Source: Escherichia phage MET-P1-301. From it: 64,000 bases of DNA. The DNA lies in sequence record PV700625; one strand, given 5' to 3'. Below, one piece after another: positions 17,440 to 19,080 of this stretch; the stretch's first letter is position 1; every line of letters starts with the position of its first letter. Made by a program: the position numbers and the translations under genes. Below the pieces are notes generated by a model. That model was not told the origin of the DNA. It made no database searches and saw only the letters and a program-made list of their open reading frames with translations.

Positions 17440-17700
17440 AAAAGGGTTTTAAGTGATGTTGGGCGAGGCTCGGTGAGGTGGGGTAAGGCATAGTGCGGTG
17501 CTGTTTGGTATGGGTAGTTAGTCTCAGCTACATTAAAATGAGACTTACCTTTTAAAAGGTCTTTAAACAGGGTCTTTTAATAAGGTTGTGTGATGTGATG
17601 TATGGTGCTGTGGAGTTTGGTTAGGTCCGGTCAGGTATGGTATGGTGATGTGAGGTATGGGTGGATGGTAGTAGCCACGTTAAAAATCTACCAAGTTTCT
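17440..17700. repeat. two tandem units of conserved motif + G/T-rich tract + hairpin
   Basis: Motif AAAAGGTCTTTAAACAGGGTCTTTTAATAAGG; G/T-skewed tracts rich in GG/GGG runs; hairpins AGTCTCA...TGAGACT and GGTAG...CTACC. Confidence 0.8.
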
Positions 17701-17768
17701 AAAGAGTCTTCTGTTGAGGGTTCTTTACAAACAACTTAACAATCAACTAAAGTGTGGAGCTAAATGCT

Positions 17769-18356
17769 ATGAAACTGTTAAATATCAAAATCACTGGTAC
17801 TCGCCCTTTCTTGAGCCATAACGATACGCTGTCAGACCCATTAAACCCTCTGACAAAATATCACAAGTCTCTGTCCAGTAAACGTAAAAAGACTGACGAA
17901 GATTATGCGCTCTTAGCAGAAAGCCAACTGGTAACTTCTTGTTACTACGATGAGCAGCTAGGTTTTGTTATGAACGGTGAGATGATTGAGGCTTGTATCA
18001 AATCTGGTGCGAAACTCAACAAACTTGGTAAGGTAATTGACCGAGCCATTATGCTGACAGATGTAGTCTTCCCAATGACTATCAAGAACTGTCCAGCAAA
18101 CCCACAAGAACTTGCTAAGAATCCAGACTTTATCTATGCTAAGTCTGTTAAGATTGGTACAGCACGAGTTATGAGCTACCGTCCAATCTTCCGTGACTGG
18201 TCTGTAGAGTTCGGTTTGATGTTCGATGAAGAGCAAATCACCAAAGAAGAACTCTTGATGGTTCTGGAAAATGCTGGTAACCTTTGTGGTGTAGGTGATT
18301 GGCGTCCACGCTTTGGTCGTTTTTCTGTAGAAGTTATTTCAGAAGGTAACGTTTAA
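17769..18356 (+). CDS. hypothetical protein
   Basis: GGAG RBS 9 nt before ATG 17769. Confidence 0.5.
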
Positions 18357-18358
18357 TT

Positions 18359-18799
18359 ATGAATACAAAAGCATTAGCAGCAAAGTTTAGTTACGGTGAC
18401 ACTGTATCACACTCTGAGATGGATACCTTCTTAGGTATTGTGAAGCCAACTTATCAAGGTGACATTGTTAAGTACGAAGATGAAATGAAGGCTTATGCAC
18501 TTACACGTCTAAACCGACTTGAGAAGTTTATTGAGAAGCTTCTTAAAGAAGAGAAGATTTATCTGGTTGCTTCAATGGGTGTTGGTTATCGTGTGGTTGA
18601 ACCTAAGCATCAAGCAACTATTGCAAAACGTAAAATGTCTGGTAAGATTGGTCGTGCTTTAAAGCAAGCCACCCAAGCAATTGAGAATGTGAATACTATG
18701 GCACTTAGTCATCAAGAACGTTCACGACTGATTGAACAGCAAAACCATTTAGCTGCTATGAAAGCTAACATTAACAAGCAACGCAGAAAACCTTTCTAA
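18359..18799 (+). CDS. hypothetical protein
   Basis: 146-aa ORF followed by terminator hairpin. Confidence 0.5.
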   Translation: MNTKALAAKFSYGDTVSHSEMDTFLGIVKPTYQGDIVKYEDEMKAYALTRLNRLEKFIEKLLKEEKIYLVASMGVGYRVVEPKHQATIAKRKMSGKIGRALKQATQAIENVNTMALSHQERSRLIEQQNHLAAMKANINKQRRKPF

Positions 18800-18810
18800 G
18801 TTGACTAGGT

Positions 18811-18834
18811 AGCCTCTTCGGAGGCTCCTTTTTA
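18811..18834 (+). terminator. intrinsic terminator
   Basis: AGCCTC-TTCG-GAGGCT hairpin followed by CCTTTTT, directly after the stop of gene 18359-18799. Confidence 0.7.
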
Positions 18835-19080
18835 AAAGGTCTTTAAGAGGGTCTTTTAATAAGGTGGGGTGGGGTGTGGTGAGGTTTGGTTTGGTGTAGT
18901 CAGGTAAGGTATGGGTAGTTAGTCTCAGCTACATTAAAATGAGACTTACCTTTTAAAAGGTCTTTAAGAGGGTCTTTTAATAAGGTGCTGTATGGTGGGG
19001 TAAGGTAGGGTTAGGCGAGGTCAGGTGAGGTTTGGTATGGAAGGATGGCAGTAGCCTTATAAAAATCTGCCAAATAAGCT
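18825..19080. repeat. two further tandem units of the same motif + G/T-rich tract + hairpin
   Basis: Motif repeated at 18825 and 18946; hairpin at 18911-18946 identical to 17522-17557; terminal hairpin GGCAG...CTGCC covaries with GGTAG...CTACC. Confidence 0.8.

Follow-up and report, generated by a model that had tools for sequence, protein, structure and literature searches.

Positions 17363–19071 of the window (the whole 64-kb stretch of phage DNA analyzed here, from a Felix O1-like phage) almost certainly form a VIPR (Viral Interference Programmable Repeat) locus of type II, belonging to the SUSP1 clade. The locus holds four guide RNAs, vrRNAs 1a, 1b, 2a, and 2b, on either side of the vipr and vap1 genes, and each vrRNA consists of 10–15 pentamers (GGY-NN) followed by a 3′ pseudoknot cap (Table 1). 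This type of locus is already known from two bioRxiv preprints (10.64898/2026.04.26.720920 and 10.64898/2026.04.26.720927). We extend the VIPR reading to the present phage because the proteins are 98–99% identical to those of SUSP1 and the RNA features are conserved between the two. Our analysis of the raw sequence, performed without the data of the preprints, reproduces three of the central points made there: that the repeats follow a GGY/NN code, that Vipr has a RAMP fold, and that satellite targets are matched under a 1-nt skip. The locus is a genuine, intact VIPR example in a Felix O1-like phage.

Table 1. Features of the VIPR locus, with their positions in the window
Feature	Position	Strand	Details
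sigma70-type promoter	17363–17390	+	TTGACA-16-TATACT; upstream of vrRNA 1a; 11/12 consensus matches
5′ stem-loop, type B	17421–17458	+	before vrRNA 1a; diverged motif copy; CATCACTTAAGA / loop GUCUUUGAAAAGGGU / UUUAAGUGAUG
vrRNA 1a guide tract	17457–17511	+	11 DGYNN repeats
vrRNA 1a 3′ tail, type 1	17512–17553	+	pseudoknot S1 GUAG/CUAC, S2 AGUCUCA/UGAGACU, A-rich L3
5′ stem-loop, type A	17547–17586	+	before vrRNA 1b; includes the exact 32-nt motif AAAAGGTCTTTAAACAGGGTCTTTTAATAAGG at 17554–17585
vrRNA 1b guide tract	17584–17658	+	15 repeats
vrRNA 1b 3′ tail, type 2	17659–17692	+	pseudoknot S1 GUGG/CCAC, S2 GGUAG/CUACC
5′ stem-loop, type C	17695–17732	+	upstream of vipr, the first ORF; fifth motif copy; GUUUCUAAAGA / loop / UCUUUACAAAC
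vipr	17769–18356	+	195-aa minimal RAMP protein
vap1 (ORF146)	18359–18799	+	VIPR accessory gene, 146 aa; directly 3′ of vipr
intrinsic terminator	18811–18833	+	AGCCTCTTCGGAGGCT + T-run; after vap1
5′ stem-loop, type A	18826–18865	+	before vrRNA 2a; 31-nt motif variant at 18834
vrRNA 2a guide tract	18863–18912	+	10 repeats
vrRNA 2a 3′ tail, type 1	18913–18954	+	with U-run
5′ stem-loop, type A	18948–18986	+	before vrRNA 2b; 31-nt motif variant at 18955
vrRNA 2b guide tract	18984–19038	+	11 repeats
vrRNA 2b 3′ tail, type 3	19039–19071	+	pseudoknot S1 AAGG/CCUU, S2 GGCAG/CUGCC

The four guide tracts show a strict 5-nt periodicity, (D-G-Y-N-N) × 10–15. Their autocorrelation reaches 0.5–0.69 at lags 5, 10, and 15, as compared to about 0.3 at the others, and 10 of 10 in-phase slots hold GT, as compared to at most 6 across 20 shuffles, which places the two loci of two units each, pointed out by an earlier sequence-only reading of this DNA, far beyond chance. 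Both loci have + orientation, in the sense direction of a + gene block. The whole 64 kb contains only these four such tracts, and the − strand has none. The tracts are G/T-rich as had been described (76–86% G+T), while this bias is partly specific to the window, and no base is missing from the spacers of the relatives (A.35, C.17, G.20, T.29). The sequence-only reading passed over the 5-nt period, the guide role of the NN dinucleotides, and the presence of vipr and vap1 as ORFs between the loci.

In the 49 distinct tracts and 617 pentamers of the relatives, the G at position 2 is conserved at 98%, position 3 holds nothing but pyrimidines (T.89, C.11), and C is never seen at position 1. The 617 triplets include 433 GGT, 69 TGT, 50 GGC, and 38 AGT, while GAG or UAG is absent. 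The NN spacers are near random (0.07–0.10 bit). The published definition of a vrRNA is a tandem YNNGG (GGY/NN) repeat, with 9–16 per RNA, a conserved GGY, and a hypervariable NN (10.64898/2026.04.26.720920; 10.64898/2026.04.26.720927). The period-5 DGYNN arrays match this definition, and we therefore count them as support for VIPR. What carries the information in the tract is the series of variable NN dinucleotides, which make up a gapped guide. Tract lengths in the relatives vary solely by 5-nt steps, with 9–19 repeats and a mode of 11.

The proteins between the two loci point to the same identity. [quoted passage not shown] Its identity to the copy in the SUSP1 genome is 97.9%, and the four substitutions (N18A, P119Q, V189I, and I190M) leave the contact residues untouched. 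According to the list of GGY-contact residues in 10.64898/2026.04.26.720927, His17, Asp177, Arg138, Trp178, Glu71, Met72, Arg179, and Cys173 are all kept; position 175, listed as Thr175, is valine both in the window and in SUSP1 itself. Vap1 is 99.3% identical to the product of the gene directly 3′ of vipr in SUSP1, which is named vap1 in the preprint, where the type II vap is a predicted DNA-binding protein (bioRxiv VIPR preprints). Pfam, PHROGs, NCBIfam, and PADLOC provided a function for neither Vipr nor Vap1, and sequence searches of Pfam, NCBIfam, PADLOC, and the PDB found no relative of Vap1. Same-strand GGYNN arrays also flank distant vipr homologues with 35–43% identity; the homologue in phage phiHSIC has no adjacent GGY array at the threshold used.

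Each vrRNA ends in a structured tail. Over 17 distinct tails, 96.1% of the pseudoknot cells are paired, as compared to 29–42% in slid controls, and eight of the nine pairs show compensatory changes on both sides. The hairpins covary, and the compensatory change between GGUAG/CUACC and GGCAG/CUGCC, which had been noticed from this DNA alone, is real: it is one of the eight covarying tail pairs. The hairpins at 17522–17557 and 18911–18946, formerly described as identical, differ within those limits, while the identity holds for a 60-nt block (17507–17566 = 18908–18967) that takes in the 1a and 2a tails, the hairpin, and the U-run. In the vrRNA 1a tail, an alternative long hairpin with the U-run constitutes an intrinsic terminator. 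The same pseudoknot cap is seen by cryo-EM (bioRxiv VIPR preprints). At the other end of the first locus, the sigma70-like promoter proposed at 17363 withstands inspection, and the relatives, including SUSP1, have a promoter likewise placed 5′ of the first vrRNA. The products would be small RNAs that terminate in a structured 3′ element, one of the two alternatives put forward earlier; sRNA-seq shows vrRNA transcripts in SUSP1 (bioRxiv VIPR preprints), and the long structured leader is not needed.

The conserved motif of the sequence-only reading is present, at a length of 31–32 nt rather than 33. A 5′ stem-loop with this motif at its core stands before every phage-borne vrRNA and before vipr, and has the conserved loop GUCUUY...GAGGGU and a covarying stem of 11–13 bp. 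Across its three types, 87% of the stem cells are paired, as compared to 39–69% in slid controls, and 7 of the 13 pairs are altered on both sides. The stem-loop may serve as a processing or regulatory signal. The accessible text of the two preprints mentions neither a covarying 5′ stem-loop before the vrRNAs or vipr nor orphan vrRNAs in phage loci without the vipr–vap cassette. Felix O1-like phages without vipr–vap1 at the locus, those resembling BPS17W1, as well as satellites, keep intact vrRNAs against satellite genes. We tentatively propose that both features are functional, which is possible rather than probable: the stem-loop would be a biogenesis or autoregulatory signal that fixes the vrRNA 5′ end and couples the expression of guide and effector, in the manner of the Cas6 repeat hairpin, and the orphan vrRNAs of vipr–vap1-less phages and satellites would act in trans on the Vipr of a co-infecting phage. 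The stem-loop, the orphan arrays, and the tract lengths that vary by 5-nt steps bear both on the making of vrRNAs and on the origin of new guides, two subjects that the available text of the preprints does not address.

The motif could instead act without any RNA stem-loop, as a promoter (TTAAAA-17-TTTAAT in type A) or as a boxA-like or operator DNA/RNA site for Vap1 or the host Nus/Csp proteins, although we consider this rather unlikely. A terminator always comes before type A, in which a sigma70-like match of 9/12 places the −10 element about 7 nt before the first GGY. The motif precedes vipr too, in keeping with a promoter or operator, and we also counted in favor of this explanation the two GGTCTTT half-sites in the motif, which we take to resemble boxA GCTCTTTAACAA. 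However, type B is without a usable −10 element, and a separate sigma70 promoter stands upstream of it. In addition, the outer stems of types A, B, and C are wholly different in sequence yet complementary, as the pairing over slid controls indicates, and therefore a folded strand fits better than a sequence-specific operator. The promoter and the stem-loop are not mutually exclusive. The GTCTTT sites in the motif presumably resemble CspE-binding sites; CspE binding and boxA/Nus antitermination were both dropped as resemblances only, with the motif confined to the VIPR locus.

What does the locus recognize? In silico, three of the four guides hit genes of an ~11-kb satellite island in E. coli chromosomes, with the large serine recombinase targeted twice and a 128-aa hypothetical protein once. 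Guide 1b scores 26/30 in the large recombinase gene (satellite locus L052, +1483; predicted site CTGTGAGGAGATAGCTGGTTATTATCCTGCAATTATAGATGAAAC) and 25/30 in L043 and L047, and none of 100 shuffles reaches 26/30. Guide 2b scores 20/22 in the gene for the 128-aa protein (L052 −7430, L046 −7883, and L047 −7859; predicted site AGCCAATGGCAACAGATACGATAAAGATTTAAT), a value again reached by 0/100 shuffles. Guide 1a scores 18/22 under the 1-nt skip, with 17/18 internally, in the large recombinase gene (L045 +2283); 2 of 100 shuffles reach 18/22, and the match, taken whole, is borderline. The skip base of these three guides falls on the codon wobble position. The best match of guide 2a (16/20, 80%) is in a tape-measure gene, where the skip base falls on the first codon position, and is not significant because 19 of 100 shuffles reach the same score; this guide has no convincing target among the 16 satellite loci. 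Among the 16 sampled satellites, none of the guides is matched perfectly.

The related guides follow the same rule. On the 16 satellite loci, 39 of the 49 guides find an NN match of at least 80% with a 1-nt skip, as compared to 1–2 with skips of 0, 2, or 3. The published target rule is a 1-nt skip that falls on the wobble base, with at least 80% NN match and mostly a satellite phage as the target (bioRxiv VIPR preprints). Within the 64-kb window there is no self-target, the best 1-nt-skip scores being 15/22 (1a), 19/30 (1b), 14/20 (2a), and 15/22 (2b). Exact 1-nt-skip patterns gave 0 matches in IMG/VR for 2a, 1 for 2b, and 4 for the 1a core, which we treat as chance because the contigs are unrelated to the satellites at both the DNA and protein levels. 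The targeted satellite occurs in ~545 of 5,426 complete E. coli genomes, the yecD/yecN island being one example.

How would the locus act? In SUSP1, Vipr is a minimal Cas7-like RAMP protein (10.64898/2026.04.26.720920; 10.64898/2026.04.26.720927), vrRNAs of ~100 nt co-purify with it, and the targets are repressed in a vipr-dependent manner (bioRxiv VIPR preprints). In the solved complex, every GGY is held by its own Vipr protomer, with the guanines in the syn conformation (10.64898/2026.04.26.720927). The mechanism for the present phage is carried over from these two preprints, which are not peer reviewed, on the basis of sequence. Following the steps shown in SUSP1, Vipr would polymerize along the vrRNA with one protomer per pentamer, burying each GGY and presenting the NN pairs; the GGY triplets would thereby be the protein-binding sites that the G/T-rich tracts had suggested. 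The NN pairs would then pair with bases of double-stranded DNA, passing over one target base in three, and transcription of the paired target would be repressed. The satellites probably depend on Felix O1-like helpers, and the phage would use the locus to silence the satellite that parasitizes it.

Other readings of the tracts have to be weighed against a guide RNA. That they act as G-quadruplexes, in the RNA or the non-template DNA, as a structured leader or regulatory element, was a suggestion of the sequence-only reading; (GGTNN)4 could in principle give two-tetrad quadruplexes and G4Hunter scores tract 2a at 1.84 and tracts 1a and 2b at ~1.45. However, the suggestion finds no support in the relatives, where only 4 of the 49 tracts reach 1.5 and 45 of the 49 have at most two runs of three or more G. 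Selection against purines at position 3 and against C at position 1 is nothing that a quadruplex needs, and such a pattern points to a protein reader; the protein-held syn guanines of the solved complex (10.64898/2026.04.26.720927) also stand against this idea, which we regard as extremely improbable. There is hardly any more chance that the tracts are TRAP-like attenuators or CsrB-like sponges, which titrate a ring- or filament-forming RNA-binding protein through NN strings without information. The 5-nt triplet period and the modal repeat number of 11 do resemble a TRAP binding site, but the triplet is GGY rather than (G/U)AG, the repeat number ranges over 9–19, and the adjoining protein is a RAMP, not TRAP. 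Moreover, the NN strings do carry information, because the satellite matches arise only under the 1-nt skip.

A very unlikely third possibility places the function in the DNA, with the arrays as an R-loop-primed replication origin, packaging repeats, or recombination hot spots around a mobile two-gene cassette. The arrays bracket a cassette found in just 129 of ~259 related records, the cassette-less loci retain two adjacent units, as recombination between arrays predicts, and the G-rich strand of the tract is the non-template one. Against this, the strand asymmetry of the arrays is strict, a promoter and terminator frame each unit, the tail and 5′ stem covary at the RNA level, and sRNA-seq detects the transcripts in SUSP1. 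Exchange between the arrays is more plausibly a by-product. An R-loop origin, Chi-like protection, a Shine-Dalgarno or tRNA-CCA sponge, and a primase-site cluster were also rejected, since none explains free spacers in a fixed register.

VIPR is a newly reported form of RNA-guided DNA recognition, in which a gapped guide is read via a Cas7-like filament, and its authors put it forward as the viral ancestor of CRISPR effectors (bioRxiv VIPR preprints). In ~230 deposited Felix O1-like genomes, the vrRNAs are present but unannotated or a bare “repeat_region”. Within the window, the 4227 Rfam models matched only tRNAs at the gathering threshold; the best hit in the locus, DUF2815 RNA, is sub-threshold (20.3 bits vs. 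41.2). The PhageMaP preprint on Bas63 does not cover the locus, and literature searches on Felix O1 small RNAs or transcriptome and on GGU repeats turned up nothing relevant to it.

The closest known system is the SUSP1 type II VIPR, which shares the gene order (vrRNA(s), vipr, vap1, vrRNA array), the GGY/NN repeat, the three tail types with a pseudoknot, a first vrRNA preceded by the sigma70 promoter and the type B motif, and the same satellite family as the predicted target. The two differ in the arrangement of the vrRNAs, 2 + 2 here and 1 + 3 in SUSP1, and in their NN guide strings. Class 1 CRISPR-Cas, with its Cas7/Csm3/Cmr4 filaments on crRNA, likewise uses one protomer per fixed RNA step, a periodically disrupted guide–target duplex, and a variable guide with a conserved structured cap. 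In contrast, the RNA step is 5 nt in VIPR and 6 nt in CRISPR, and VIPR buries three of every five guide bases, so that the guide is non-contiguous and one target base in three is skipped; VIPR is also phage-encoded and acts by repression. The kinship is by protein fold only: 17.3–19.1 kb contains no CRISPR repeat-spacer array, and the repeat unit is 5 nt with two variable bases. The TRAP/trp leader of Bacillus (11 (G/U)AG triplets with 2–3-nt spacers) has a similar triplet period of ~5 nt with one triplet per subunit, while the triplet here is GGY, the protein fold is unrelated, and a helical filament replaces the closed ring; the VIPR spacers are informative, and their function is DNA targeting rather than attenuation. 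The CsrB/RsmZ sponges are also small RNAs with many short G-rich protein-binding motifs, whereas the vrRNA motifs are single-stranded and strictly in phase, and the RNA is a guide, not a decoy.

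The G/T-rich tracts of the window, which derives from a Felix O1-like myophage (Felixounavirus), are part of a type II VIPR locus that belongs to the SUSP1 clade and is intact. The 16.0-20.5 kb region of the window matches 259 phage records, most with 90-99% identity. The four units lie in pairs on either side of ORF195 and ORF146, with their tracts on the sense strand of a + strand gene block (12-22 kb; GC skew +0.16). While the sequence-only reading described G/T-richness, the defining property of the tracts is a strict 5-nt period. At lags of 5, 10, and 15, the autocorrelation reaches 0.5-0.69, as compared to about 0.3 at other lags, and GT occurs in 10/10 in-phase slots, as compared to at most six in shuffled sequence. 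A scan of both strands of the 64-kb window revealed no further such tract.

Positions of the locus components and associated features (L numbers, loci compared with the window), and the best satellite matches of the window guides
Feature	Sequence	Position	Strand	Best match	Shuffles reaching it	Matched satellite gene
Sigma70 promoter	window	17363
8-bp inverted repeat	window	17379-17418
vrRNA 1a	window	17457-17553	+	18/22 (17/18 internally)	2/100	large recombinase
Identical block	window	17507-17566, 18908-18967
Type 1 tails	window	17511-17571, 18912-18971
Exact motif copy	window	17554
vrRNA 1b	window	17584-17692	+	26/30	0/100	large recombinase
ORF195 (vipr, 195 aa)	window	17769-18356	+
ORF146 (vap1, 146 aa)	window	18359-18799	+
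vrRNA 2a	window	18863-18954	+	16/20	19/100 (not significant)	tape measure
vrRNA 2b	window	18984-19071	+	20/22	0/100	128-aa hypothetical
12-bp inverted repeat	window	19073-19119
HTH regulator gene	window	19754-20053
24 clustered tRNA genes	window	46610-52147	-
Satellite island	L038	9835-20861
Satellite vrRNA	L038	19971-20120
Satellite vrRNA	L039	19980-20110
Satellite vrRNA	L045	10646-10800
Satellite vrRNA	L047	10469-10620
T-arm-like tails (LittleE, Trine)	L055	2670-2950, 4161-4520
T-arm-like tail (LittleE, Trine)	L056	3623-3760
Orphan vrRNA pair	L009	~3029-3260	- (of locus)
Orphan vrRNA pair	L037	640-860
Ligase gene annotated as two CDS (phage tootiki)	L001	387-1684

According to the VIPR preprint (bioRxiv 10.64898/2026.04.26.720920; model, Escherichia phage SUSP1), these systems combine Vipr, a minimal RAMP protein, with an accessory gene (vap) and vrRNAs about 100 nt long. 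Each vrRNA has 9-16 YNNGG repeats (GGY/NN) and a conserved 3' tail, which in the SUSP1 clade folds into a pseudoknot. The SUSP1 locus in our set (L011) has one vrRNA upstream and three downstream, matching the published arrangement. ORF195 matches PDB 36pp, "SUSP1 Vipr protein", in a sequence search (E = 6e-128), and its AF2 model has a pLDDT of 94.6 (46-sequence alignment); no Pfam, NCBIfam, or PADLOC family matched it. Four residues distinguish ORF195 from the SUSP1 genome copy, all outside the contacts. It has the contact residues named for Vipr; position 175 is V in both ORF195 and SUSP1, and T in the companion preprint (10.64898/2026.04.26.720927). ORF146 is 99.3% identical to SUSP1 vap1. 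Beyond this clade, same-strand GGYNN arrays flank the Vipr homologues (35-43% identity) of Mycobacterium phage LittleE, Gordonia phage Trine, and Pseudomonas phage Medea1, while none was found next to the phiHSIC homologue. The vrRNA tails of the actinophages LittleE and Trine hold tRNA T-arm-like sequences, such as GGCGG-TTCGAGT-CCGCC, suggestive of a 3' module that resembles a tRNA. LittleE "gene 35", an opposite-strand CDS in the annotation, overlaps two of the vrRNA arrays and is unlikely to be a real gene.

How constrained is the repeat? Related loci carrying the motif core were drawn from IMG/VR, and their 65 units yielded 49 distinct tracts with 617 pentamers. Position 1 is G (.80), T (.13), or A (.07), and never C (1.08 bit); position 2 is G (.98; 1.85 bit); and position 3 is T (.89) or C (.11), and never a purine (1.50 bit). 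Positions 4 and 5, the NN dinucleotide, accept all four bases (0.07 and 0.10 bit, respectively). The cryo-EM structures in the companion preprint (10.64898/2026.04.26.720927) account for this matrix position by position: one Vipr protomer sits on each repeat, with G1 read by H17 and D177, G2 clamped by R138 and W178, and Y3 held in a pocket that excludes purines. Between the conserved flanks, the tracts are 48-99 nt long, differing only by multiples of 5, and contain 9-19 repeats (mode, 11). In phages with 92-100% identical flanking genes, the repeat loci are only 75-88% identical and the tracts cannot be aligned. The matrix, the fixed register, and the unalignable tracts together indicate that selection preserves DGY triplets in a fixed frame, with rapid turnover of the spacers. 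Neighboring identical pentamers are barely enriched (6.5% vs 4.3% expected), which, with the 5-nt length steps, argues that the guides diversify quickly without simple slippage. The accessible parts of the two preprints yielded no account of guide renewal.

The G-quadruplexes proposed by the sequence-only reading are not supported. Window tract 2a is the G4Hunter extreme among the 49 tracts, but only 4/49 score at least 1.5, and in 45/49, G runs of length three or above number no more than two. The pyrimidine-only position 3, which no quadruplex requires, also counts against them. Several candidates had been considered before VIPR was recognized. Among them, a TRAP-like protein-binding RNA has the wrong triplet, and the NN carry information, while an R-loop origin cannot explain free spacers in a fixed register. 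By analogy with SUSP1, for which transcripts are reported and Vipr binds GGY, the same reading's suggestions of a small RNA and of protein binding appear correct, the RNAs being type II VIPR vrRNAs.

The three tail types can be aligned column by column and share an H-type pseudoknot (S1, positions 3-6/17-20; S2, 9-13/30-34; A-rich L3). In this fold, 96.1% of cells are paired, as compared to 29-42% in slid controls, and eight of nine pairs show changes on both sides. The compensatory change noted earlier, GGUAG/CUACC versus GGCAG/CUGCC, holds; the hairpin described as identical does lie in an identical block, about 10 nt from the coordinates proposed. Type 1 tails have an alternative outer stem that, with a U-run, would form an intrinsic terminator; variants without the U-run lose this stem and keep S1. 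The two window type 1 tails also score 20.3 and 18.1 bits against the Rfam DUF2815 RNA, below its gathering score of 41.2; the shared 5' GGGUAG and hairpin are probably a chance likeness.

The motif that the sequence-only reading reported is present as an exact copy, and the full motif is confined to the VIPR locus within the 64-kb window. This 31-32-nt element goes unmentioned in the accessible text of both preprints. Type A follows terminators, type B follows the sigma70 promoter or tails without a U-run, and type C lies just upstream of vipr. Each is predicted to fold into an 11-13-bp stem with a conserved loop, GUCUUY...GAGGGU, and from type to type the outer stem has an unrelated sequence, yet remains complementary. 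In this stem, 87% of cells are paired, as compared to 39-69% in slid controls, and 7/13 pairs covary. The promoter proposed upstream scores 11/12 against the consensus, and its predicted RNA, ending at the 1a terminator, is about 160 nt long; since mature vrRNAs are reported at about 100 nt or shorter, the 5' end would have to arise by processing or from an internal start. Type A may itself be a promoter (TTAAAA-17-TTTAAT). We favor a processing or regulatory stem-loop, with support that is moderate, as there are only about three independent types and the arms are A/T-rich. At the 17363 promoter, an 8-bp inverted repeat (GGTGAGTA ... TACTCACC) overlaps both the -10 element and the beginning of the vrRNA 1a leader.

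What do the guides match? A 77-nt match to a tract end and tail was found in 152 E. coli chromosomes, within an island of about 11 kb carrying a large serine recombinase, baseplate, tape measure, small ORFs, HNH, sometimes a Dam methylase, a lone vrRNA, and a small recombinase. The island occurs in 545/5,426 complete E. coli genomes, at wrbA/ymdF, at tonB/yciI, or inside a DUF72 gene between yecD and yecN, and its family (L038, L040-L053) is mosaic, with 80-93% identity. It fits the satellite of the VIPR preprint, which has tape-measure and baseplate-hub homologues. We scanned 16 satellite loci (276 kb) of about 545 with the NN strings of the 49 guides, under four skip rules, each leaving a set number of target bases unpaired between NN pairs. 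At an NN match of at least 80%, a 1-nt skip gave 39/49 guides, as compared to 1, 2, and 1 guides for skips of 0, 2, and 3, which independently reproduces the published 1-nt rule. In silico, three window guides are aimed at the integrase-type recombinase and a small conserved gene of the satellite, and in the 1a, 1b, and 2b matches, the base passed over falls at the codon wobble position. Guide 2a has no significant target in these 16 loci, and no window guide has a self-target within the 64-kb window.

The satellite vrRNAs have their own TATAAT promoter and terminator, and lack the 5' motif, vipr, and vap; their tail covaries (S2, GUCG/CGAC). The L039 guide matches another island locus, L044, at 21/24, outside its annotated genes. 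In some Felix O1-like phages, the locus has two intact vrRNAs side by side and neither vipr nor vap1; vrRNA-like DNA occurs in about 230 phage records, as compared to 129 with vipr. These orphans reflect either recent cassette loss by recombination between arrays, or guides used with Vipr supplied in trans; one (L037, tail type 3) matches a satellite Dam-methylase gene at 20/22. Downstream of the window locus, the next operon, which includes an HTH regulator gene, has a sigma70 promoter (TTGACA-17-TATTTT) flanked by the arms of a perfect 12-bp inverted repeat (AATAAGCTATAA / TTATAGCTTATT), likely an operator. The window also holds a tRNA gene cluster. In several relatives, the DNA ligase gene upstream of the VIPR locus carries two CDS annotations.

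From the preprints and the near-identity to SUSP1, we infer the following mechanism. Vipr would coat each vrRNA, with one protomer per pentamer, burying the GGY bases and leaving the NN pairs free to recognize double-stranded DNA, in which every third base is skipped. The R-loop triplex thus formed would block transcription, and vap1 would boost the block. In the SUSP1 cryo-EM structures (companion preprint), the filament is capped by the 3' pseudoknot. The locus likely suppresses a satellite that exploits Felix O1-like helpers. As one of the preprints argues, reading only the first two codon positions blunts synonymous escape. This type of locus is already known from two 2026 preprints and a PDB entry (36pp).
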